Source of the DNA: a bacterium
GTDB lineage: Bacteria; UBP15; UBA6099; JAJRTR01
Length of the DNA stretch: 37,214 nucleotides
NCBI GenBank assembly: GCA_024278215.1
Contig: JAJRTR010000133.1
Coordinates: 1 to 37,214, forward strand
Reading direction: 5' to 3'
Part shown: in pieces, positions 3 through 37,214 of the stretch
Layout: each line of letters begins with the position of its first letter
How positions within the stretch are numbered: the stretch's first letter is position 1
Notes under the pieces: model-generated
What the model saw: the letters and a program-made list of their open reading frames with translations, nothing else
Told to the model about the DNA's origin: nothing
Databases searched by the model: none
Made by a program: the position numbers and the translations under genes

Positions 3-3000
3 CAGTCCCACAGTGTTCTCGGCCTTAACGGTTACATAATACGTCTGGCCCTCGACAAGCACCAGCGGCGTCGCCGTAGCGGCGGTTGCCACTCCCGCGT
101 CTGTCCAGTACACGACATCCGTCGCGCCGCTCGCTGTGCCGATCGCATACCAGTAGCGCTGCAATCCGCTCTGTCCGTCCGCCGACGCGGACCAGTTCAT
201 AGCGATATAGTTCGTCCAGGTCGCCGTGTCAATGTCTGTTCCGTTTCCGTCGTTAACAGTCAATATGTCGCTCGGCGGCGTCGCGTCGACCGTTACGCCG
301 TCCGAGGTAGTAGTATTCGAGAACAGACCGGCCCCGTTTTCGGCCTTCACCGTGAGGTAATACGTCGTCCCGTCGACAAGTGTCAACGTAGTGGTCGAGA
401 AGTTCTTGTATCCATAATTATCAGTCCAGTTGATGGTATCCGACGCGCCCGCGACCGTTCCGACACTGTACCAGTAGTGCGAAACCCCGCTTTCCGAATC
501 CGTGGACTCCGACCAGCTTCCCTCCAGGTCCGTAGTCGAAGCCTGCCATGTCGCGTCTGTCGAAAGGCCGTCGATCACGGTCACGATATCAGTTGGCGGA
601 GTATCGTCGTAGTAGTCGACCAGAGTTCCGTCCGAAATCGTGTTGGTCGAGAACAGGCCGACCCCGTTTTCAGCTTTCACAGTCGTGTAATACATCTGGT
701 TGTCGGTCAGGGAAAGTCCGGTGTCGTTCGCATATCTGGAAAGCCCGTTATCCGTCCAGCTTATCGTATCGGAAGCGCCGGGTGTTGTACCCACTGAATA
801 CCAGTACCTTGCTATCCCGCTTTCGCTGTCCACGGAAATATCCCAGTTCGAGCTCATATACGATCCGCTGCTCTGCGTGTCTTCGTCCGCGCCCGCACCT
901 TCATACACAAACGCGATAGTGCCCGGCGCCGTGTCGTCAACCGTATATGACAGTTCTGTCGAACTTGTGGCGTCGTCCGCGTTCGACCACTCGTCCTCGC
1001 AGCCGATGAAAACAGACTCGGTGCCCACCGACAGCCCTGTCGTCGAACACGAGTGATTGACGGCAAGCGCGACGTCACATGTGTGAGTTGCCGGCATCGA
1101 GGAATAATCCAGATCGGACAGAGCCCACAGGCAGCGGCTTGTCTCATCCGTGTCGAATGTCAACAGGGGTGATGTCGTCGCCACACCCGAATCGTCCGCC
1201 GGGTCCCAGTTGCTCTGTATCGGCGTGGACAGGTCGATCGTATATGTGAGCAAGGTATTTGTGTCGTAAGCATCCGAATTATTATTTGTGTCCATGCACG
1301 CGATATAGACGTTGTTGCTGCCTTCCGTGAGGCCCGTCGCAGTGCAGGTTTGCGACATTGTGCCCGCGCCTGCGCACTCGTTCCCTGCCGGCATGACCGT
1401 GTATGCGTTGTCGTATTCGTACCACCTGCATGTCGCGTTTTCGTCGGTGTCGAAAGTGATGACAACCGTCGAGCTTCCCTGCTCTGTCCCGCTTGCGGGC
1501 GACCAGTTGCTCTGCACCGGCGGCGCATTATCAACTACGACGCCGTCTGAAACCGAGACATTGGAATAAGTACCTGCTGTGTTCATCGCTTTGACCGCGA
1601 AATAATATGTCAATCCACTCGTCAGTGTCAGTCCGCCCTGTGTGACGGACGTGTTGCCGCCCGCGTAGGTCCAGTCCACTACATTTGTCGCGAATGTCGC
1701 AGTACCTATCGCATAATAATAGGCGGATATTCCTGTCTGGGGGTCCGACGAGGTCGACCAGTTGGCCGACAGCGATGTGGTCGAGCTGGCGAAGTCGCTG
1801 TCCACGCCCGTCTCCGTGCCGTCATAAACATTCGCTATATCGGTCGGCGGCGTACTGTCCACCGTGACATTTATATGTTCATTTGTCAGGTCCGTATCTT
1901 CGTTCAAATTGGTATCTATACAGGAGAGGTAGAAAATAGTGGCGCCGTCCGCGAGTCCCGCCACGTCGCAGGTCATGGATGTTGTTCCGCCGCCGCCGCA
2001 GTCCTGACCCGCCCCCATATCCGTATAGCCCTGGTCCGTCAGCGACCACCGGCACGAGCCGTTTTCATTCAGGTCGAATGTCACAGTCGGAGACGCTGTG
2101 CCTATGGTGCTGAATTTCGCCGGGTCCCAGTTGCTCTGCTGGGGCGGCCCGTTGTCCAGCTTCTGTCCGTCGGTCGTTACTGTTGCCGATACACCTCCCG
2201 CTCCATTTACCGCCCGCACATTGACGTAATACGTTACCCCGTCCATCAGGGACAGATTCAATTGCGTCATCCCATAGCCGGAAGTTCCATCGTCCGTCCA
2301 GTCCAATACATCCGTCGCACCGGCACTGGTGCCTATCGAGTAGTAAAACGTGTCGATTCCGCTTTCGCCGTCTGCAGCGTCCGACGCCCAGTTCGCGGAC
2401 ATCTGATCCGGCAAAAAGATTATATCCACGTCGCCCGGCCCCGCTCCGTCATTCGCCCAACTGGGTGCCGACGGCGCTGTCGCGTCATAGAGTTGCCGGT
2501 CGGAATTCGCGGCGGGCGATTGCAGCCCGACACCGTTCTCCGCCCGCACCGTGAAGTAATACTTCTGGCCCTGAATAAGCGACAGCCCCGTATGCGTGAC
2601 CCCGGTCGCCAGTCCGATGTCCGTCCAGCCCACCAGGTCCACAGCACCCGTGGAGGTGCCGATCCCATATTGATATTTGACTATTCCGCTTTCCGGATCG
2701 GACGAAGTATCCCATATCGCCGAAAGCTGTGTTCCGTCGTTTGTGAAATCTATATCGTCCGGCCCCGTGCCGTCATACACATAAGAGATGTTCGTAGGCG
2801 GCGTGCCGTCGACGATATCCACCTGCTGGCCGTTGGAATTGACCACTCCGGATTCTATCCCGCCCCAGTTCTCCGCTTTCACCGTGAAATAGCACCATGT
2901 ATAGTTCGGTATTTGCAATCCCGTGTGGGTTACGGACAGATTGTTGCCGTTGTCCGTCCAGTCGACAATGTCGGTAGCCCCCGGCGCGGTGCCTATCGCA

Positions 3001-6000
3001 TACCAGTAGCGCCTTATGCCCGAGTCTCCGTCGACGGCGGCGTTCCAGTTGGCTTCAAGCTGCGTCGCGACCGGCGTCGAGTTTATGTCCGCGCCCAGCC
3101 CGTCCCTGACCACTCCCACCGTCGACGGTGCCGATGTGTCAGTATTAAGTAACGCGCCGTCGGATACCGATGCGTTTCCCTCGAGTCCCGATCCGTTTTT
3201 GGGCTTGACAAAGAAGTAATACGTCTGTCCGTCGGTCAGGCTCAGACCGGTGATTGTCTCGGCGGTATCCGTTCCGGCGGATGTCCACGACATGAGGTCC
3301 GGATACCCGTTTGTCGCGCCGAGCCCCACGTAATAATCCGATATCGCGCTCTCGCCGTCTACCGATGCGGACCAGTTCGCCGGGTACTCGGTCGGGTCGT
3401 AAAACACGTCCCAGTCGGCGCCGGGCCCATCGTTCACCGTCGCTATATCGCCTGGATACGTATTGTCGACTTCCACGCCGTCCGCCTGGGTGGTCGCCCC
3501 CGTCAGCCCCACCCCGTTCACCGCTCTGACGGACCAGTAATATATGTCTCCATGCACAAAAACCAGTTCACTGTATGTTACGAACGTATTATCCGTATGG
3601 CTCGCCCAGCCGATAATATCCGAGCCGCCGGGCGTTGTGCCCAGCGCATATTCATAATACAGTATCCCGCTTTCCGGGTCGTCCACCCCCGACCACGATA
3701 CCGTCAGGTCGTCAGGCTCCGGACTCAGGTCCTGGCACAACGCGCCCGTCCAGTTGCAGACAGAAGGGTATGCTTCGCAATTGGTCTGATTCAATCCCGT
3801 GCAGATGCTAGTGTGTGATATGTAATCGCCGTCGTAGATGATGTCTATGGCGGGTGGCGGCGTGACGTCTGTATTGTTCACCTGCTGGCCGTCGCTGGTA
3901 ATCGTGTTGGACATGTAGCCCGCGCCGTTTTCCGCTTTCACCGTGAAGTAATATGTCTGACCGTTGACGAGGTCGAGTCCACCGTGCGTAACCGAGAGAT
4001 TCGTTGCGTTATCCGTCCACGAAACGGTGTCCGACGCCCCGGCGGTCGTTCCTATCGAATACCAGTAACGTGCGATGCCGCTGTCCACGTCCGAGGAAGC
4101 CGACCAGTTCGCCGACAGCTCCGTCATAACCGACGTCGTGTCGATATCGGCGCCCAGCCCGTCATTGAGCGTCGTAATGTCCGAAGGCGGTGTGTTGTCG
4201 ACCTGGAACCCGTCTGATGTTTCAACAGCCGATGCGTCGCCGTTTCCGTTATACGCGACTACGGATATGTAATACGTATTTCCCGTACCGCCGGCAAGCG
4301 CGTGCGCATCCGCCATCACTGTCGACGTGGAATTATTCGTCCACCCGATCTCGTCGGCGCCGCCGGGCGTCGTTCCCAGCGCGTAGGAATAGTATGCGAC
4401 GCCGCTTTCCGGGTCCGTCGTCGGCGGCCAGTTCCCGTATACGGTCGTGGTCGGTGTAATGTAATCGACATCTTCGCCGGTCCCGTCTCTGACGACCGGC
4501 ACCGCGGGCGGCGGCGTCGTCTCCGTATAACTCGTCATCTGTCCATCCGAGTTGCGCGCGCCTGTCCAGTTCCCGTTTCCCGCTTTCGCCATTACCGTGA
4601 AGTAATACGTGGTCAGATTCGCGAGCGCCAGATCGATATGCGTGACCGATGTCGCCGTGCCGATACTCGTCCAGGGCACAACATCCGTCCCGCCGGCCGT
4701 CGTCCCTATCGCATACTGATAATGATCTACTCCGCTTATCCCGCAATTGCAGTCATCCCAGTTGGCGGACAACTTGGTACCGTAAGGCGTAGTGTCGATA
4801 TCGGGAGCAATGGTGCCGTCACGCACAGCGTCGGGCAATGTCGGTATTCCCGTGTCGATCGTCACTCCATCGCTGATCGGGTAATAGCCGCCGCTGCCGC
4901 CTATTTTCGTCTGCATACCGACGCCGTTCTCCGCTACGACTTCGACGTAATATGTCGTACCGACGATCAGTGTCAGCCCCGTTTTGGTAAACGATGTGTT
5001 CAGTCCGTTGTCGGTCACCGCCACAATATCATTTCCGCCCTGTGTCGTGCCGATCTGGTACAGATACCTGACAATACCGGATTGAGGGTCCTGGACGACA
5101 TCCCAGTTTGCCGATAATTGGGTTGTTGAAGTCTGGAAGTCGATGTCCACTCCAAGACCGTCCCTCACTTCCGTCGGTCCCTCCGGCCCGGATGTGTCTA
5201 TCGTCACCCCGTCCGACACAACCTCTTTATATGCACCCGCGTTGTTGTAACCCCTGACCGTCACGTAATATGTCTGGTCGGGTTTAAGGGATAATGAAGT
5301 AACTTCCACAACCTTGGTTCCAGGTGAATAAGCGATAGTTGTCCAGCCCAGGGCTTCTGTCGTGTCCGTCGCCGTGCCGATTGCATAACGATATTTGTCC
5401 ATGCCGCTTCCAAGGTCCACGAAAGCCGGCCACTGGGCCTTGATCGTGTTGGTCGAACCCTGGAAATCTATGTCGACACCAGGATCAATAAATATTTCTA
5501 TCACAGGTTCGCCGCCGGTAGGCGGTGTGTTGTCGACTGTAATGCCGTCGGAATATGTAAATGCAAATGGAGCCACACCGGGCGGCGGCGGATCGTCAGG
5601 AATGCTTCCGGCACAGTTCTCGGGAATTACGGTAACGTAATACTTTGTCCCGTTCGACAGAGAGAGCCCGAGTCTTGAAAAACTGGTGGACGAACTGCCC
5701 GTGCTTGTCCAGTCGACAACTTCTCCGCCGCCCTGCGTCGTGCCTATACGATACTGATGATTGCATATTCCGCTCTGAGCGTCCGACGCGGCGTCCCAAC
5801 TCGCGTAAATCCGGTCCGTCCATGACTGGTAATCCATGTCAAGATGAAAAATAATTCCATCATAAACAGTTGCTATTGTGCTCGGAGGTGACAGGTCGAC
5901 ATCGAAACCGTCGGATACCCGCGCTGTCCCCTCTCCATCTGCGTTTTCCGCCCATATACATACATAGTTCTTACTCCCTGTCGAGAATGTACCGGTGTTG

Positions 6001-13208: not shown

Positions 13209-13295
13209 TGCCGAAGGGGGGACTTGAACCCCCACGTCCAATAGTGAACACTAGAACCTGAATCTAGCGCGTCTACCAAATTCCGCCACTTCGGC
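13209..13295 (-). tRNA. tRNA-Leu (anticodon CAG)
   Basis: Minus strand GCCGAAGTGGCGGAATTTGGTAGACGCG-CTAGA-TT CAG GT-TCTAG, a long variable arm, then GTGGGGGTTCAAGTCCCCC-CTTCGGC-A. CCA is not encoded. Confidence 0.96.
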
Positions 13296-14476: not shown

Positions 14477-14655
14477 GAGCCAGTTGCAAAATTATATTCG
14501 AAGCGAGGTCGAGCGAAATTGGTCGGAAGCAAGGCAGAGGTGCAAAATCCCCGCAGGCGTACTTGTAGAGTACGTCGAGGATGATTTTGTGCCGACAACG
14601 CAGCTGTTGACAATTGCAGCCGACCGTAGCTGAATCAGAATTTTGCAATTGGCTC
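14477..14655 (+). mobile_element. MITE family A copy 1 (179 bp), target duplication GATA
   Basis: TIRs GAGCCAGTTGCAAAATT / AATTTTGCAATTGGCTC; GATA at 14473-14476 and 14656-14659. Confidence 0.88.
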
Positions 14656-14678: not shown

Positions 14679-16958
14679 TTGATGAGATATGACCACACAG
14701 GAATGACCGCACACATAAAATCGTTTTCCGCATCCGTTGCAGCAGCATGGCTCGTGGGATTAGCTGTGATGCTGCTTTCGTGCACGATTTCGCCGAAAGG
14801 GGCGTGCGCGCGATCACAGAAATATCGGATTGTCATCGAGTCGGCCGATTATCTCAAGTATGAAAAAAACATGTCGGTTACGTTCATGAAAGGCAACGTG
14901 GTGATCGCCTATGAAGGCACCCGCATAATGGCCGATGAAGCAGTCCTGAATGAAAGGACGAAAATGGTGACTGCGAAAGGAAATGTCGCGGTTATCGAAT
15001 CGGATAACGAACTGGACGGCGAGTTTCTTATATACAAATACGATGAAAAGTATTTCGAGTTGTCGCAGGTGAGTGGCCGCACCATTTCGGACAACAAGGG
15101 AACAGAAGTTTTTTTTACCGGCGAGACGGTGAAGGGAACAGAGCGGAAGGTGAAGGTGAGGTATCCGGATTTCACAACGTGCGGCCCGCATTGCCCGTCG
15201 GAATATCACATGCGCGCGCGCGACGTTTCGATATTTCCGAACAATAAAATAATCGCCCGGAAAGTAGCGATATATCTGCGTAAAACGCGCGTGATGTGGC
15301 TGCCTCTTTATATTATATCGCTTAAGGATGAAGACCGTTATATGCCAGAATTCGGCTACGACAAAACCCGTGGCTTCTATGTGCTGTCGAAGTATCCGTA
15401 TCTTGCGAGAGAACTTGTTTCCGGCTGGATAATACTGAACTATATGACGAAAAAGGGCACAGAGTACGGGATGGACCACAAGTACACCGCACGCAGGATC
15501 GGCGGCGCGGGCCGCACTACTTTTAAGACTAATAACGACAAGCAATCGGGCAATACAAACTCGACGATTTCGCTGACACAGCAACTGAAGTTCGGAAAGA
15601 AGTTCTCCGGAAACACTTCGTATTCCAGAGTCAACACATACAACATCTACACACCCGCCTACCGCACTAACACTGCCAGATATGCACTGAACATGAATAT
15701 CAGGCAGACAAGTTACAAGAACCTTGGAATAAAGTATAACTTCAACGAAAGCAAAAGCAGGTCCGAAAGCAAGAACAGTTCGATCGGCCTGACGAGGAAA
15801 ACGCGATTCAGCAAAAACCTCACTCTCGATTACAACTATACACAGACATTCAGGCAGATCGGCGAATATCCGAAAAATGAAGAGTCGACCTTCAACTCGA
15901 CGACAAGATATAATCTGCCCGGCATCCTCTCGATGACGATGACGACATACAAGACCTTCGACCCCGACGGCGACAAATACGCGAACGACCGGAATGTCAG
16001 CGTAAACAACCAGAAGACGCCGGAGATAAATGTGCAGCTACAACCAAAACTCTGGCAGAAAACACTACCGCAAAAATATATTCCATTAAAAAAGGTTTCT
16101 TTCCAGCATGGCCGATACAGGCAGGGCACACGCAGGAGCAGCGAGGCGCTGCGCAGGAACGCCTTCGAGCTCATGGCCGACAGGCAGTTCAAATTCGGCA
16201 ACAGGCTCACTATCACTCCGCGGGAAACATACAAACAGCGTTTCTACAACACGAAAGACGCGATGTATATACTCGACCACACGACGGCGCTCCAGTACCG
16301 GACGCGGAGCAGGAACGGCAAGACAAAAACATTTACGATGAACTACAGGAAGTCCGGCGACTCCGGCGGAATACCGTATCCGCGCGACCGCGGCTCCGAA
16401 CAGATAATGCTCAACGGCAACTTTACAATACAGAATCCAAAAACTGTTTTCAAGATGGCGACGAGCTACAATTACAGGACTTTCTCATACAGTCCGCTGA
16501 CTCTCAATTACAAGCGGGGCATCACGCAGAACTCGACATTCAACATCAACGGCGGTCGCGATCTCAACCGGCATACATGGAACAATACTTCGACCACACT
16601 CGGACTGAAAAGGAGAAACACAAGAATAAATATCAACGCCACCTGGGATACGGAAAAGGATTTCGAACTGCGCAACATGAATATAAAAACCGAGCACAAG
16701 CGCCGCAATGGCTGGAAGTTCCAGACCAGAAGCGTCTACGAGGACAACGACCGTTACAGCCTGCTCCGCGATGTTATCGCCACAAAAACAAGATGCTGCA
16801 CGCAACTTCAATTTTCATATAATACGGAAAGAGACGAATTCAAATTTCAATATATGATCCTTGCGTTTCCGAGCAAAAGCTTCGGCTTCACACAGGGCGG
16901 CCAGGGGTTCGAGTTCAATGAGAATCTCACAGAATTCAAGTCTGAGGAACAGAAATGA
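14679..16958 (+). CDS. lptD: LPS assembly protein LptD-like (OstA-type N-domain plus beta-barrel)
   Basis: Signal peptide; N-terminal jellyroll motifs (IE.AD.L.Y, GNV.I.Y....I.AD, A.GNV); FTTC...C...Y...A, PEFGY...RG; a barrel-like C-half with RCC near the end; next to lptF/G. The start could be 14682 or 14703. Confidence 0.8.
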   Translation: MMRYDHTGMTAHIKSFSASVAAAWLVGLAVMLLSCTISPKGACARSQKYRIVIESADYLKYEKNMSVTFMKGNVVIAYEGTRIMADEAVLNERTKMVTAKGNVAVIESDNELDGEFLIYKYDEKYFELSQVSGRTISDNKGTEVFFTGETVKGTERKVKVRYPDFTTCGPHCPSEYHMRARDVSIFPNNKIIARKVAIYLRKTRVMWLPLYIISLKDEDRYMPEFGYDKTRGFYVLSKYPYLARELVSGWIILNYMTKKGTEYGMDHKYTARRIGGAGRTTFKTNNDKQSGNTNSTISLTQQLKFGKKFSGNTSYSRVNTYNIYTPAYRTNTARYALNMNIRQTSYKNLGIKYNFNESKSRSESKNSSIGLTRKTRFSKNLTLDYNYTQTFRQIGEYPKNEESTFNSTTRYNLPGILSMTMTTYKTFDPDGDKYANDRNVSVNNQKTPEINVQLQPKLWQKTLPQKYIPLKKVSFQHGRYRQGTRRSSEALRRNAFELMADRQFKFGNRLTITPRETYKQRFYNTKDAMYILDHTTALQYRTRSRNGKTKTFTMNYRKSGDSGGIPYPRDRGSEQIMLNGNFTIQNPKTVFKMATSYNYRTFSYSPLTLNYKRGITQNSTFNINGGRDLNRHTWNNTSTTLGLKRRNTRININATWDTEKDFELRNMNIKTEHKRRNGWKFQTRSVYEDNDRYSLLRDVIATKTRCCTQLQFSYNTERDEFKFQYMILAFPSKSFGFTQGGQGFEFNENLTEFKSEEQK

Positions 16959-17638
16959 AAAACAACTTGATGAAACGCGGATTCATGTTTTTGACGGCGG
17001 GAATACGGGCAGCGTGGTTGCTGATTGTATTCGTGATATTCCTTTCAGGATGCGCGAGATACGCGCCTGTGCCGCCGCCACCACCTAAAGACCGCATCCT
17101 CGAAATCAGGCTCGTTACGGCCGAACCGGTGTCGCCCGATTACTATTACTATATTGCCCTGAACACGGACAACGACCCGGATGTCGACGGCCCGTGGCAA
17201 TATCTTTCCGGTGCCGACCGCGCTAAAGACTGGTCATATTATATTGTCCTGAAAGACGGATATTTCAGTGAAAACATCATAGCGAACGAAGAGGACCGGG
17301 ACAATGAACCGACCCTGTTCAACAATACATCTTCGAGGTATTATTACACGACTGTTTCAGGCACAAGCATAACTGTAAGAATGCTTATAAGCAACTTTAT
17401 CGCCGACAATATCGCCATAAAGATGAATTTCATCACGAGCCTTCTGCCCCTGACTCCGACAGACGAGGTGATCGAGGCGCTGGATTATATCAAGCCGACT
17501 TTTTTCAGTGTTACCAACAGGGACGGCGAGTTGATAAATTATACGAATTACCCTGCTGTCAGCGACCACGCAGTCGCGGGCGACGACAACAAAGCTGCGG
17601 ATATTGTCGCCTGGTATGTGCGCATCTACGAGATTTGA
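16955..17638 (+). CDS. Hypothetical lipoprotein translationally coupled to lptD
   Basis: ATGA overlap with the lptD stop. A lipobox-like FLSG-C follows a hydrophobic stretch, then a Pro-rich tether (APVPPPPP) and a beta-rich domain. Confidence 0.75.
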   Translation: MKNNLMKRGFMFLTAGIRAAWLLIVFVIFLSGCARYAPVPPPPPKDRILEIRLVTAEPVSPDYYYYIALNTDNDPDVDGPWQYLSGADRAKDWSYYIVLKDGYFSENIIANEEDRDNEPTLFNNTSSRYYYTTVSGTSITVRMLISNFIADNIAIKMNFITSLLPLTPTDEVIEALDYIKPTFFSVTNRDGELINYTNYPAVSDHAVAGDDNKAADIVAWYVRIYEI

Positions 17639-19398: not shown

Positions 19399-19576
19399 GA
19401 GCCAACTGCAAAATCATGATTCTGCTGCGGTCGGCGGCTATTGCCCATAGCTGCGTTGTCGGCGCGAAATCGTCCTCGACGTACTCTACAAGTACGCCTG
19501 CGAGGATTTTACACCTCCGCCTTGCTCTGAACAATTTCGCTCGACCTCGCTACGAACATAATTATGCAATTGGCTC
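19399..19576 (-). mobile_element. MITE family A copy 2 (178 bp), target duplication TTAC
   Basis: GAGCCAACTGCAAAA...TGCAATTGGCTC; TTAC at 19395-19398 and 19577-19580. Confidence 0.88.
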
Positions 19577-23953: not shown

Positions 23954-24131
23954 GAGGCAATTGCAAAATTCTGATTATGCTGCGGTCTGCTACTATTGTC
24001 CATAGCTGCGTTGTCGGCATAAAATCGTCCTCGACGTACTCTACAAGTACGTCTGCGAGGATTCTACACATCCGCCTTGCTCTGAACAATTTCGCTCGAC
24101 CTTGCTACGAATATAATTTTGCAATTGGCTC
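23954..24131 (-). mobile_element. MITE family A copy 3 (178 bp), no matching target duplication
   Basis: GAGGCAATTGCAAAATT...AATTTTGCAATTGGCTC; the flanks are ATAC and GTAA. Confidence 0.88.
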
Positions 24132-26832: not shown

Positions 26833-27010
26833 GAGCCAATTCCAAAATTCTGATTCTGCTGCGGTCGGCTGCTATTGTCCATAGCTGCGTTGTCGGCGCA
26901 AAATCGTCCTCGACGTACTCTACAAGTACGCCTGCGAGGATTTTACACCTCCGCCTTTCTCTGAACAATTTCGTTCGACCTCGCTACGAACATAATTGTG
27001 CAATTGGCTC
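26833..27010 (-). mobile_element. MITE family A copy 4 (178 bp), target duplication CTTT
   Basis: GAGCCAATTCCAAAATT...TGTGCAATTGGCTC; CTTT at 26829-26832 and 27011-27014. Confidence 0.88.
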
Positions 27011-27102: not shown

Positions 27103-28434
27103 TCACTCTGCAACTTTCTGTATCATCGCCTGATATCCATAGTGGGCGATAAGGTTGTCGAGAATAACCATGGCCATGACACTTTCCGCAACCGGCCATA
27201 TACGACCGACAATTGTGGGATCACGGCGCGTGATGGCCGAAAGCTGCGTGTTTTCCATCGTGTACTTATCCACAGTGTTTTGTTCTCTGTCGATAGTAGG
27301 CGTCGGCTTGACAGTGATGCGAGCGATAACCGGCTGACCTGTGGAAAGACCGCCTGTGATGCCGCCGGCGTTGTTCGAGTCGAACCTGATTTTGCCGTCT
27401 GCCGCGCTCATTCTGTCGTTGGAATCGTAACCTGTCATGTCTTTGACAGCCATGCCCGCGCCGACCTCGACTGCCTTCACGGCGCCAATGCTCATCAGTA
27501 TGCCTAGGTCGCCGTCGAGCTTGTGAAAAACGGGTTCACCTACTCCGGCAGGCAATCCGAGCGCCACAACTTCCACCTGTCCGCCTGACGAATCGCCTGT
27601 CTTTGTTATTTTATTGCATTCTTCCAGCATTTCATCCGCAATATCGGCATCAGGGCAGTTGATAACATGATGGACACCGTATTTATCCCTGATCACCGCC
27701 GGGTCGACCTCTCTCGCTTTTGCTCTGATGTCCTGTATTTCGTTTTCGATCTGTGCGAAGATCGCCATCTTTTCGAGGAAACGCTGTTCAGTGTTGATGC
27801 GCTCTTTTACGTATATTTCCTGGTAGAACGGGTCGTAGTCGCAACGATATTGTTTATACTGCTGATAAGATTCCCATGCTTTTTCCAGGTCTACGCTGTC
27901 GACTCGCACACCCGCAGCTTCCTTGATATAGGAGAAAACGCGGATGCCGCATTTTCCGAGAATGCGGCGGGCGACATGGCCCGCTGCGACAATAGTCGCA
28001 GTGTAGCGACCGCTGAAGAAGCCCGCGCCGATAGCGTCGTCGTCCGGGCCGTATTTGATAAAGGACGCATACGAAGCGTGGCCGGGGCGTGGTGTGCGGT
28101 TTGTATCCTGGTACTGTTTTATGTGAATAAAATGACGGTCCAGATTCGGTATCAACACGGTAAACGGCGTACCGTTGGTGTGTCCTTTGTTGTCTGCGCC
28201 CTCAATAGTATCCGCAGCATTTATCCCCGCATATATCACTGGCAGGTCTGGCTCGACGCGCGGTGATGAAAGCTCATCAGCACCGGGCTTGCGCAGCAGA
28301 AGGTCGGAATACAGTTCCTGCTCCGTTATCTTCATGCCGGGCGGCACTCCCTGTATCGTCGTATTCAGTCCGTCCTGGTAGGAGCCGCCGCCTACGGTCA
28401 CCTGAAATATTCGTCCGAAATGACATCCTATCAT
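27103..28434 (-). CDS. aroC: Chorismate synthase (AroC)-like protein, atypical
   Basis: AroC-fold motifs GVPPG, PR.EPD, T.GTP, RPGHA, VAAG, GDSSGG, P.G.GEPVF.KLD, SNNAGG..GG.STG, KPTPTI and DP..V.R. The signature FGESHG reads GGGSYQ, and there is a ~65-aa insertion. Confidence 0.8.
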   Translation of the reverse strand: MIGCHFGRIFQVTVGGGSYQDGLNTTIQGVPPGMKITEQELYSDLLLRKPGADELSSPRVEPDLPVIYAGINAADTIEGADNKGHTNGTPFTVLIPNLDRHFIHIKQYQDTNRTPRPGHASYASFIKYGPDDDAIGAGFFSGRYTATIVAAGHVARRILGKCGIRVFSYIKEAAGVRVDSVDLEKAWESYQQYKQYRCDYDPFYQEIYVKERINTEQRFLEKMAIFAQIENEIQDIRAKAREVDPAVIRDKYGVHHVINCPDADIADEMLEECNKITKTGDSSGGQVEVVALGLPAGVGEPVFHKLDGDLGILMSIGAVKAVEVGAGMAVKDMTGYDSNDRMSAADGKIRFDSNNAGGITGGLSTGQPVIARITVKPTPTIDREQNTVDKYTMENTQLSAITRRDPTIVGRIWPVAESVMAMVILDNLIAHYGYQAMIQKVAE

Positions 28435-32684: not shown

Positions 32685-32857
32685 GAGCCAATTGCAAAAT
32701 TATGTTCGTAGCGAGATCGAGCAAAATTGTTCAGAGCAAGGCGGAGGTGTAAAATCCTCGCATGCGTACTTGTAGAGCAAGGACGATTTTATGCCGATAA
32801 CGCAGCTATGGACAATAGCAACCGACCGTATCAGAATCAGAATTTTGCAATTGACTC
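32685..32857 (+). mobile_element. MITE family A copy 5 (173 bp, 5-bp internal deletion), target duplication AAAA
   Basis: GAGCCAATTGCAAAATT...AATTTTGCAATTGACTC; AAAA at 32681-32684 and 32858-32861. Confidence 0.86.
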
Positions 32858-32889: not shown

Positions 32890-34290
32890 ATGATAAAGAA
32901 ATTGGGAAAAGCGTTCAACAGACTCCTTATTAAGAATGCACGTGTGCTCGATGTCGAAAAAGGTGAGCTTTCGCCGCCGCAGAAGATTATCATTGAAAAA
33001 GGTATTATTCGGGAAACAGGCACAGAGGCCGAACCCGATTGTGATAGTATCGACCTCGATGGACTGACTCTTTCGCCCGGTCTCATCGACTGCCATGTAC
33101 ATATTCTCAGTCCGTATCTGACGGAACAAAAGGGTATACCGGGACTATGGACACTGAAACAGATGGAGCGCAACTGCCGGGCGACTCTTGCTGCCGGAGT
33201 GGTCTGTGTCTGCGATATGCTTTCACCGATAAAGATACTGAATCGTGTGCGCAGAAAGATCGAATCCGGCAATGTCGATGGACCGGACATCATAGCATCC
33301 GGCGGAATATTCAGCTGCGCGGGCGGTTACCCGGAAGCGATAAGTCCGGTGGCTGCTCCCATAGGCGCTGTAACCGGCCAGCCCAAGTATGAGCCCAGAA
33401 CTCCGGCGCAGGCGAAAAGACTTGTTAATTACCTTTATAACCTTGGCGCAGGCGTGATAAAAGTCGGCTACACACGATTGTCACGCCAACTCGTGGACGG
33501 CAGAACCCTTCCCGCTATCAGCGATGAGAACCTGCGTGCCGTTTGCAACGCCGCACACGAACTCGGGCTCAAAGTTCGCGTCCACCACAATTGGTCCGAG
33601 GACATGAACCATCTCATCACATTCGACATAGACACGCTCGAACACGGCGTCTACGACAGGACGTTGCTTGATGAAGAAATTCAGGATGTGAAAGAAAGCG
33701 GTGTGTCGATTGTCCCCACACTTACCATAAACGACAGCCAGGCACGATTCGAAGAAAAGCTCGGATTTCTCAAAAGCAACAGGGCGAAAGAATATTTCGA
33801 GCCGGAAGCGCTAAGGCATCTCACATGGGTTTGCTCGACATGGACAGACTTCAGTGGTGAGAGCTATGGCGGCTCGTTCGGCTACACACGTGCCAACCGC
33901 TACTGTTATGATGCCGAATTGAATAATACACGAAACCTTTTCGAGGCCGGTGTGAAACTGTATGCCGGAACAGACACCGGCGCGGTCGTAGCATGGCCGG
34001 GTGAACTCGCAGATGAATTGATCAGGCTCAACAGCATCGGCATGTCTCCCCTGCAGGCCGTCAGGGCCGCAACGGCAGAGGCCGCCGAACTGGTTGGCAG
34101 GCCGGACCTCGGCATCGTTAAAAATGGTAAAACCGCGTCGTTCACTGTTATCGAGGGCAATCCGCTTGACGACCTTTCGGCTTATAAGAAAGTAAGATAT
34201 GTCTGCAAGAGTGGAAAGTGGTACAAACCCCTGCACGATCAATTGCCCGATTTCTGGTCGGGTTACGATGTTCATTTCAAGCTTCGATAG
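32890..34290 (+). CDS. Metal-dependent amidohydrolase (Xaa-Pro dipeptidase/imidazolonepropionase-like superfamily)
   Basis: LLIKNARVLD, PGLIDCHVH, IKVG, VRVHH, LEHG, AGTD, A.RAAT..AA...G and GNPL. The likely start is ATG 32890. Confidence 0.88.
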   Translation: MIKKLGKAFNRLLIKNARVLDVEKGELSPPQKIIIEKGIIRETGTEAEPDCDSIDLDGLTLSPGLIDCHVHILSPYLTEQKGIPGLWTLKQMERNCRATLAAGVVCVCDMLSPIKILNRVRRKIESGNVDGPDIIASGGIFSCAGGYPEAISPVAAPIGAVTGQPKYEPRTPAQAKRLVNYLYNLGAGVIKVGYTRLSRQLVDGRTLPAISDENLRAVCNAAHELGLKVRVHHNWSEDMNHLITFDIDTLEHGVYDRTLLDEEIQDVKESGVSIVPTLTINDSQARFEEKLGFLKSNRAKEYFEPEALRHLTWVCSTWTDFSGESYGGSFGYTRANRYCYDAELNNTRNLFEAGVKLYAGTDTGAVVAWPGELADELIRLNSIGMSPLQAVRAATAEAAELVGRPDLGIVKNGKTASFTVIEGNPLDDLSAYKKVRYVCKSGKWYKPLHDQLPDFWSGYDVHFKLR

Positions 34291-34349
34291 TGTCGTGTCA
34301 CACTTGTAAATGCGCAACATGTGTATACAGTGGCCGGGGTCACCGTACC
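34288..34349 (+). mobile_element. Family B element, truncated copy 3
   Basis: TAGTGTCGTGTCACACTTGTAAATGCGCAACATGTGTA...GGGGTCACCGTACC matches the reverse complement of the 13095-13134 end of copy 2. It begins on the amidohydrolase TAG stop. Confidence 0.7.
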
Positions 34350-34449
34350 ATAAGCGCTCAAATAAGAATGGCCAATAAACTGGGTGCAGTATTTCTATTT
34401 GCAATGTTCGTTTTCTATTTCCTTCCATCAATTTTGTTTTAATATCGTT

Positions 34450-34644
34450 AACCCCTCCCTGCAATCCGTACCCGGCCTCAGCCCCGTCTCCATCGCCGCC
34501 ATCATCGCCGAAACAGGCGACATCAACCGCTTCGAAACCGTCAACAAATACATCGGCTACATCAGACTCTACTCCGTTCGCTTCCAGTCCGGCAAAACCG
34601 ACTTCTTCTCCCGCATGACACGAAAAGGCAACAAGCTCCTGAAG
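34450..34644 (+). pseudogene. IS110-family transposase fragment (C-terminal domain)
   Basis: LQSVPGLSPVSIAAIIAETGDINRF......GY..L.....QSG......RMTRKGNKLL is the typical IS110 C-terminal pattern; the N-terminal DEDD domain is missing. Confidence 0.8.
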
Positions 34645-34749
34645 GATACACGGCATTGGCGACGACATGTCCACCGCCCGCGAAAAATACGAAAACGACG
34701 GCGTCAAAGCCGATGGCATCAAACACAACAACAGCGCCGCCTGCGCCGA

Positions 34750-34945
34750 GAAATCGCAGGAGTGAGCATCCCAAAGATCACACAACCGAGAGCCGCAGGC
34801 TCGAAAATCCTTGAGGCCCTCGACATAAAACTGCCCACCCCCAGCGACGACATACGAAAAGTATCCACCACAACCAAACAAGCGCACAAATAAAAACGCC
34901 TTTGTATATCAGCATATTTCCAATATCACACTGTTCGTTCGGGGG
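34750..34945 (+). pseudogene. C-terminal fragment and end of a second transposase (IS1634-like)
   Basis: SIPKITQP.....KILEALDIKLP resembles the C-termini of IS1634/IS4-superfamily transposases. It is followed by a stop and a putative end sequence ...ACTGTTCGTTCGGGG. Confidence 0.4.
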
Positions 34946-35981: not shown

Positions 35982-36890
35982 ATGATGAAAACAGTGATTT
36001 TTTTCGTACTTGCGCAGCTTGTGCTGTGTTTTATGATGTTGACACAGAGTCCGTGCGAGGCGAAAGGTGCTGTCGACCGGCTGAGCGATAATCTCGTTGC
36101 GGGCATCTCCAGCGAAGACTACTTTCTCGGACGCGAGCCCGAGAACTTCGATTATGAAATCAACAAAAGAATGTTCTGGATCGGCGGAAAAAACGGCACA
36201 CGTTTTTTTTCGTCCAGGACGGAAACCGGGATCGTGAAAGATGCGTCGATAAAAAAGTTTGCAACCACGATACGAATGGACGAGTATGGACTGAAGGCCG
36301 GCTGGCGGCTCGGCGCAATGAATAACCAGAGCTTCGCTGTCGGATACGGCAGAAAGGATATCGACCCCAGCGATTATATCGAGTATTCATACAGCGATTA
36401 TTGCAAGGCTAATCACGCGGGGGGGCCTTGCGCTTCTCCGCTAGGTCTCTCCGGCATTCATTCCAACCCGGTTTACTTCGATTACCTGTATGACATGCGC
36501 GGACTGTGGCATGTCAGCCTGTCGTACATTCACGAAAAAATACATCTCGAAACGAATGCCGGACTATCGGTTGCCGCCGATGTGTTTACATTGTCAGGAG
36601 GCAGGGAATGGACACGGTTTGCGCTGGACTTTTCTCTTACAAAACAGGTTTCCGACCTCGCGCCGGATAACACGAATCTTGAAATGAAACTTGCGTATGA
36701 GCCTGTGCGGCACATCGAGATCAGTCTTCTCGCCGGTGCATATTTCAACGGGCTGCCGGCAGGCGGGCGCTCTTTCAGCGACCTCGGCGAGCGGTTCGTT
36801 TTCAATTATCTGGCAGGCGACAGCGGTTTCGATAAGCTGTATTCGGAAAAGTTCGGTTACTTTGCGCTCGGAGTGACTCTTTCGCTTTGA
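35982..36890 (+). CDS. Hypothetical exported protein, probable outer-membrane beta-barrel
   Basis: Signal peptide, alternating hydrophobic/polar strands (LKAGWRL, FAVGYG, VSLSY, MKLAYEP) and a C-terminal YFALGVTLSL. Confidence 0.65.
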   Translation: MMKTVIFFVLAQLVLCFMMLTQSPCEAKGAVDRLSDNLVAGISSEDYFLGREPENFDYEINKRMFWIGGKNGTRFFSSRTETGIVKDASIKKFATTIRMDEYGLKAGWRLGAMNNQSFAVGYGRKDIDPSDYIEYSYSDYCKANHAGGPCASPLGLSGIHSNPVYFDYLYDMRGLWHVSLSYIHEKIHLETNAGLSVAADVFTLSGGREWTRFALDFSLTKQVSDLAPDNTNLEMKLAYEPVRHIEISLLAGAYFNGLPAGGRSFSDLGERFVFNYLAGDSGFDKLYSEKFGYFALGVTLSL

Positions 36891-37158: not shown

Positions 37159-37214
37159 GAGCCAATTGCAAAATTATGTTCGTAGCGAGGTCGAGCGAAA
37201 TTGTTCAGAGCAAG
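37159..37214 (+). mobile_element. MITE family A copy 6, cut by the window edge
   Basis: GAGCCAATTGCAAAATTATGTTCGTAGCGAGGTCGAGCGAAATTGTTCAGAGCAAG matches the left end of copies 1 and 5. Confidence 0.88.

Follow-up and report, generated by a model that had tools for sequence, protein, structure and literature searches.

The protein encoded by aroC*, a gene within a 37,214-nucleotide stretch of bacterial DNA (hereafter the window), probably completes a six-step shikimate pathway that dispenses with shikimate kinase, and would do so by eliminating water instead of phosphate. It belongs to a subfamily, here called the SY clade, that is widespread, and the genomes carrying it are, judging by their gene content, almost all devoid of shikimate kinase. 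To our knowledge, the steps leading from shikimate to chorismate have been regarded as fixed in all life. Phosphorylation at C3 has been thought necessary because it provides the leaving group for chorismate synthase.

An earlier note, made from the DNA letters alone, had described the product of this gene as a chorismate synthase-like protein with altered active-site motifs, and all of the motifs that it quoted could be verified (GGGSYQ, LLRKPG, GAGFFSGRYT, TRRDPT, RPGHA, GDSSGG, GEPVF, SNNAGG and KPT). The reading frame is intact throughout (Table 1). The product exceeds the cut-offs of PF01264 (301.7 bits, cut-off 27) and TIGR00033 (305.8 bits, cut-off 212.2), and falls just below that of the PRK05382/NF003793 equivalog model (310.4, cut-off 321), which a shorter form of the protein surpasses with scores of 414–415. 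A predicted structural model (pLDDT 70.8) has disordered active-site loops (pLDDT below 50). When this model was used in a Foldseek search, every listed match with an E-value below 1e-9 was a chorismate synthase, and the predicted chain has the beta-alpha-beta fold of that enzyme. A degenerate gene or pseudogene was considered and excluded, given the intact frame and the fixation of the altered residues across the clade.

Table 1. Coordinates of aroC*, its motifs and other features of the window, and loci of the odd kinase found with ordinary aroC in other genomes
Feature	Location	Strand	Remarks
aroC* gene (long-form SY-clade chorismate synthase homologue)	27103..28434	-	443 aa; PF01264, TIGR00033, Foldseek, tblastn
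GGSYQ motif, residues 16-20	28375..28389	-	Ser18 kept; Tyr19 in place of E. coli His19 (N. crassa His17)
RPGHAS motif, residues 116-121	28072..28089	-	flavin-protonating His119 kept (E. coli H106, S. pneumoniae H110)
GAGFFSGRYT, residues 136-145	28000..28029	-	Ser141, Arg143 kept (E. coli S127, R129)
RRDPT motif, residues 403-407	27214..27228	-	Arg403, catalytic Asp405 kept (E. coli R319, D321)
All-helical insertion, long form only, about residues 177-258	27661..27906	-	~67 aa more than solved homologues
178-bp element copies	26833-27010 (+), 19399-19576, 23954-24131, 32685-32857 (-), 14477-14655 (-), partial 37159-37214		
tRNA	13209-13295	-	Rfam
ORFs without Pfam match, 227-425 aa	29759-30730, 16955-17638, 1875-3152, 4302-5117, 35982-36890	+	
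IS110-family transposase fragment (PF02371)	33811-34893		after amidohydrolase gene
Odd kinase fused to ordinary aroC	L224:3535-5139, L242:1417-3069, L256, L257, L258, L260, L268		G106, G269, G301, G339, G280, G116, G355
Odd kinase adjacent to ordinary aroC	L222, L223, L239, L244, L008		

One change lies in the motif that holds the invariant ESHG His of chorismate synthases (H17 in N. crassa, H11 in M. tuberculosis), which the SY clade lacks. Residues are numbered hereafter as in E. coli AroC, by alignment. Tyr occupies the His19 position in all 241 SY sequences, comprising 121 of the long form (the window protein and 120 homologues at 70–93% identity) and 120 of the short form, whereas His is found there in 28/28 ordinary AroC proteins of control genomes and in 83 of 88 distant AroC representatives. 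Because the Tyr is present in 121/121 long-form sequences, the motif changes can be attributed neither to chance nor to decay. Three of the distant proteins outside the clade (P0170, P0174 and P0224) carry Arg at this site, which may thus have been altered more than once independently. Passages in two papers assign to N. crassa H17 the protonation of the leaving phosphate (PMC2386126; section 2.7 of PMC7144000), and the first of these describes the residue as conserved in all known species.

Many other active-site residues have been retained. Both SY forms keep S18, R48, R59, E61, R103, H106, S127, R129, K293, R319 and D321, and the His and Asp on the flavin side (H119 and D405 in AroC*) are present in 121/121 long-form and 120/120 short-form sequences. 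Passages in one mechanistic study assign flavin protonation to H106/H110 and activation of flavin N5 to the Asp (D367 in N. crassa, D339 in S. pneumoniae) (PMC3509576). Both forms differ from the E. coli-type enzyme in that D108 is replaced (by Ser in the long form and Glu in the short form), R121 is mostly replaced by Ile or Cys, and G318-R-H-D-P-C323 reads T-R-R-D-P-T, so that H320 becomes Arg (Arg404 of AroC*, an additional Arg beside R319) and C323 becomes Thr. The long form alone has also lost R125, E130 and R134. The loss of Arg residues emphasized in the earlier note is therefore real for R121, R125 and R134 but was overstated, since R48, R59, R103, R129 and R319 are kept in 121/121 long-form sequences. 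R59 and R319 correspond to R48 and R337 of S. pneumoniae, which we take to be phosphate ligands. With the flavin residues kept and the phosphate-side His lost, the flavin chemistry appears to be intact and the leaving-group side rebuilt.

AroC* thus shares with the E. coli-type enzyme (PF01264, TIGR00033; structures 4LJ2, 5Z9A, 7RCA and 1R52, and the FMN/EPSP complex 1QXO) its fold, the His and Asp that serve the flavin, the two conserved serines, K293 and the five Arg residues named above. The helical insertion, predicted to consist of four helices with 20 invariant positions, many of them charged, is a gain of the long form that is absent from the short form. Structural comparison of the insertion gave no match above Z 3.0, and the best one (Z 3.0, rmsd 8.9, 67 residues) is uninformative; such weak matching is no evidence of a new fold.

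In the AroC tree the two forms group as one clade (SH-aLRT 100; 23 of 70 rows; a quick search without bootstrap), which is placed in the half of E. coli type. The best 120 of 5,847 homologues of AroC* are 70–93% identical to it and about 440 residues long, and at least 575 matching stretches were confirmed among GTDB species genomes. Among the 80 matches listed are members of Planctomycetota, Fibrobacterota, Omnitrophota, Ratteibacteria, Armatimonadota, Spirochaetota and Deltaproteobacteria, and all titled records among the matches listed are MAGs or metagenome assemblies. The short form, which has a GESYG motif and about 375 residues, is present in two order-level kin of the source genome, and Armatimonadota, Bacillota and Ca. 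Syntrophoarchaeum are among the named sources of similar sequences. Database names for SY proteins, where there are any, read 'chorismate synthase'. A search of CC-licensed PMC articles and bioRxiv yielded no description of the SY subfamily or of a kinase-free route, a question on which gap tables of the GapMind type may also bear. The earlier judgment that the protein is not an ordinary AroC, and possibly represents an undescribed subfamily, is borne out by this monophyletic, highly conserved clade that lacks a His treated as universal in the literature.

The source genome is 95.2% complete and offers no second, ordinary aroC: there is only one PF01264 match, and the aroC* locus is the sole hit of a tblastn search with the E. 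coli protein. DAHP synthase, AroB, AroQ, AroE and AroA are encoded, as are the chorismate users TrpE and PabB, and genes cover six of the seven steps of the shikimate pathway. Being the sole AroC of a genome equipped to make and use chorismate, AroC* appears to hold the same pathway position as its E. coli-type relatives, after AroA. The step without a gene is that of shikimate kinase, and neither of the kinase families of the seven-step textbook pathway (AroK/AroL or the archaeal GHMP type) was found. PF01202 had no match, a local kinase profile reached at best 25 bits, and nothing scored above the cut-off of TIGR01920; the three weak matches examined best fit the ThrB, mevalonate/galactokinase and heptose-kinase families. 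The earlier note had proposed that a sole aroC in a complete shikimate pathway, able to complement delta-aroC, would argue for an ordinary enzyme. The gene is indeed the sole aroC, but the pathway that surrounds it lacks its kinase.

As had been reported previously for this window, no other aro gene lies nearby (none among 26 window ORFs scanned), and the neighbors of aroC* are unrelated (fmt, rsmB, a metallophosphoesterase gene and queC). Across 92 SY aroC loci, a few of them from the same genome, a same-strand aroA precedes the gene in 47 and is its immediate neighbor in 41. It is the only frequent neighbor; no recurrent kinase was found among the immediate neighbors of these loci, and the largest neighbor cluster after aroA has four members. 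An SY-type aroC adjoins or lies near purC at L039, L042 and L043 (G003, G005 and G007) and also at L094 and L097. Among 50 carrier genomes, taken from 50 of 80 loci, three have an ordinary AroC as well, one has a short SY copy, and two have a second long copy; two long-form copies each were seen in G003 and G007.

The window also holds copies of a 178-bp dispersed element that has terminal inverted repeats, resembles MITE or REP sequences, and folds into a long stem. There are 239 near-full copies with AT-rich flanks on 109 contigs of the genome, and one copy separates aroC* from fmt. The element has no Rfam match, the tRNA being the only Rfam match in the window.

The absence of shikimate kinase extends well beyond the source genome. 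A sample of 251 genomes at least 90% complete, drawn evenly from the phylum of the carrier G096 (Planctomycetota), was searched with six models, and matches were found to PF01264 in 244 genomes, the long form in 17, the short form in one, PF01202 in 235 and NF040667 in 16. Sorted by AroC, 15 genomes have the SY type only, three have both types, 226 have other AroC only and seven have none. An intact AroK is present in 0/15 SY-only genomes. PF01202 matches, for which only 14 candidates were scored per genome, occur in 225/226 genomes that have only ordinary AroC, which shows that the procedure is sensitive. All three genomes with both AroC types have a kinase, as do four of the seven without AroC. 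Twelve of the 15 SY-only genomes have no PF01202 match at all; G183 and G348 have a homoserine-kinase-like match alone, and G330 has such a match together with an internally deleted kinase-AroC fusion remnant. A Fisher test on this contrast gives p of about 1e-22, which is an overstatement, since related genomes do not count as independent and the sample was deliberately centered on G096.

Similar patterns were obtained with other samples. Among order-level kin, PF01202 matches occur in 0/12 genomes, compared with 18/19 domain controls (19 of the 40 that had an AroC match). The one exceptional control, G034, also lacks an AroA match, and it carries a divergent AroC (L217:2991-4214) in which GESHG is kept while the C-terminal and central motifs are eroded; this protein is possibly repurposed or decaying. 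A set of 46 SY-only genomes (within G062–G110, of which G094 and G096 are also among the 251) lacks a credible AroK in 44 cases. AroE is present and the kinase absent in G096, G102 and G108, three carriers with sequence records titled as chromosomes. Short-form genomes G006, G010 and G219 have neither the insertion nor the kinase.

The 46 SY-only genomes contain nine full-length PF01202 matches, eight of which form a separate clade (100/100) that best matches NF040667. Eleven kinase-like proteins of SY-only genomes reach 165–190 bits with NF040667 (cut-off 197) and at most 114 bits with the best AroK-type model. These 11 were accordingly rejected as better fits to the homoserine kinase model, and two further candidates were set aside as a GntK (G087) and a fusion remnant. 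The same homoserine-kinase screen removed none of the controls, and 13/13 ordinary-AroC genomes with such a protein have a second PF01202 match. Homoserine-kinase-like genes at L229, L230 and L233 (G064, G072 and G109; NF040667 177–184 bits, below cut-off) lie near a gene of about 250 codons whose product has an N-terminal His-x-His motif and looks PHP-like by eye.

Some genomes depart from the pattern. G084 is SY-only but encodes an AroK of normal appearance, found together with broken further copies on a contig of 8.8 kb, and the SY-only G100 has an unclassified kinase-fold match of 65.7 bits. Conversely, G159 has an ordinary AroC and no kinase match, so absence of the kinase can also reflect assembly gaps. 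An archaeal GHMP kinase was considered as a substitute and rejected: in a set of 71 genomes (70 SY carriers or kin, and G159), TIGR01920 found nothing above its cut-off, and the single 56.7-bit match is ThrB. AroE was detected in 67/71 of these genomes. Together, these gene inventories suggest that EPSP may not be made in SY-only cells.

The enzyme between the missing kinase and AroC* differs as well. Its closest known relative is class I EPSP synthase (E. coli 1G6S; plant 8UMJ), and the AroA of the source genome, here AroA*, passes TIGR01356 (419.9, cut-off 287.25). Unlike class I AroA, it has Glu (Glu192) at the position of Ser197, with positions numbered as in E. coli AroA by alignment. We take S169, S170, S197, N336 and K340, which are annotated as active-site residues, to be those that hold the phosphate of S3P. 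Glu is found at position 197 in 29/30 SY-only genomes (one was masked), in 5/5 genomes with both AroC types and in 45/45 full-length aroA neighbors, whereas Ser or Thr is found in 36/36 AroA proteins of 35 ordinary-AroC genomes, a control group from which five Glu197 ordinary-AroC genomes were set apart after the fact. Ser169 is invariant in Ser/Thr197 proteins (37/37) and relaxed in the Glu group, where Thr is most common. Catalytic residues are retained, and the AroA proteins of SY genomes keep K22, R27, R124, S170, Q171, D313, K340, E341, R344, H385 and R386. On a FastTree tree of AroA, proteins with Glu197 are split between two places.

Glu197 is not confined to SY genomes, occurring also in seven genomes that have only ordinary AroC and a kinase (G139, G180, G269, G301, G339, G280 and G052). 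In the first five, a distinct kinase lacking the usual lid Arg-Pro motif is fused or adjacent to aroC (5/5), and three of these genomes were used in building a profile of this odd kinase. In a forward test, Glu197 was found in the two genomes picked by the odd kinase (G280 and G052) and in G116, which has both AroC types; G353, without an odd-kinase match, has Ser197, and so does G043. Weaker members overlap ordinary AroK at 130–155 bits with this profile. In odd-kinase genomes, Glu197 was found wherever AroA was read. Either the Glu197 AroA accepts S3P, in which case the argument from residue 197 is weakened, or the odd kinase, a distinct shikimate-kinase subfamily and a candidate for such a role, acts after AroA, on enolpyruvylshikimate. 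The fusion remnant of G330 (L243/L250/L259; C126:3174-3740) is a 206-codon frame that covers the greater part of the kinase but just the C-terminus of AroC; its genome also encodes an SY-type AroC that is intact.

The proposed route would begin with AroA* transferring enolpyruvyl from PEP onto the 5-hydroxyl of unphosphorylated shikimate, with Glu192 occupying the vacant phosphate site. E. coli AroA is itself said to use shikimate slowly, in a reaction that is insensitive to glyphosate. AroC* would then use reduced FMN, like the ordinary enzyme, to remove the C3 hydroxyl and C6 hydrogen of 5-enolpyruvylshikimate in a 1,4-elimination that gives chorismate, with His119, Asp405, Ser18 and Ser141 in place. 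The earlier note's proposal of a different substrate would thus probably hold in a narrow sense, EPSP minus its phosphate, but not in the sense of an unrelated compound outside the aromatic pathway. Protonation of the phosphate as it leaves has been ascribed to the very His that SY proteins lack, and this loss is counted in favor of water elimination. More speculatively, Tyr19 could protonate the departing hydroxyl with the help of the new Arg404. One-electron transfer from the flavin, favored for ordinary chorismate synthase in passages of PMC3509576, could help to expel the protonated hydroxyl. For each chorismate made, one ATP would be spared.

Several observations count against water elimination, namely the retention of R59 and R319 and the added Arg in the SY proteins, and the retention of S170, Q171 and K340 in AroA. 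Moreover, hydroxide leaves far less readily than phosphate. The kept R59 and R319 and this chemical difficulty keep two rival explanations alive. The stronger, although still unlikely, is that AroC* is an ordinary chorismate synthase that acts on EPSP and whose residues have drifted, with S3P or EPSP being supplied by an unrecognized or promiscuous kinase of another family. Retention of R48, R59, R129, R319, H106, D321, S18 and S127, a TIGR00033 score above the aroC cut-off, and the seven genomes that combine Glu197 AroA with a kinase and ordinary AroC are all consistent with this explanation, and replacement kinases are known elsewhere, such as the shikimate-kinase-like homoserine kinase described in PMC5764234. 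However, drift leaves unexplained why phosphate-facing positions have changed in both of the enzymes that flank the missing step, no kinase recurs beside the 92 loci, and a homoserine-kinase-like protein is present in only 3/15 SY-only phylum genomes.

The second rival, which seems improbable, holds that the C3 hydroxyl is activated without an ATP-dependent kinase, receiving a phosphoryl or acyl group from some other donor or through AroA* or AroC* themselves, possibly via the insertion. Such activation would remove the leaving-group problem, an anionic leaving group would fit well with the retained and added Arg residues around its site, and the insertion has 20 invariant positions, many of them charged. 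Yet the short form lacks the insertion and its genomes lack the kinase all the same, Glu197 of AroA would presumably disfavor an anion at C3, and no donor enzyme recurs among the neighbors. Finally, an FMNH2-dependent enzyme of the AroC fold that works outside aromatic amino acid synthesis on an unrelated substrate, as a wide reading of the earlier note would have it, might be suggested by the replacement of a universal His and several Arg residues, by the lack of aro genes in the window and by the ordinary AroC found alongside in three phylum genomes and three others, but it is very improbable given that the protein is the sole AroC of its genome and of 47/50 carriers, that TrpE and PabB are kept in the genome and AroE in carriers, and that the gene directly follows aroA at so many loci (41/92).

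Taking the kinase-free route as the preferred reading, the evidence leans slightly toward a broader picture in which a six-step pathway, with AroA* acting on free shikimate and SY-type AroC* serving as a flavin-dependent dehydratase, operates in several bacterial phyla and some archaea. In this picture, lineages that regained an ordinary AroC did so together with the odd kinase fused or adjacent to it, which would phosphorylate enolpyruvylshikimate after AroA, with the textbook order of the two steps reversed. If this is true, many uncultured lineages skip the phosphorylation of shikimate, and metabolic models that score aroK-less genomes as aromatic auxotrophs would be corrected. An AroC-fold flavin would be able to expel hydroxyl, which bears on the debate over radical versus cation mechanisms. 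Altered glyphosate sensitivity would also be predicted, to the extent that the reported behavior of E. coli AroA is a guide, and the two genes might be used as an ATP-saving module in the bioproduction of aromatics.
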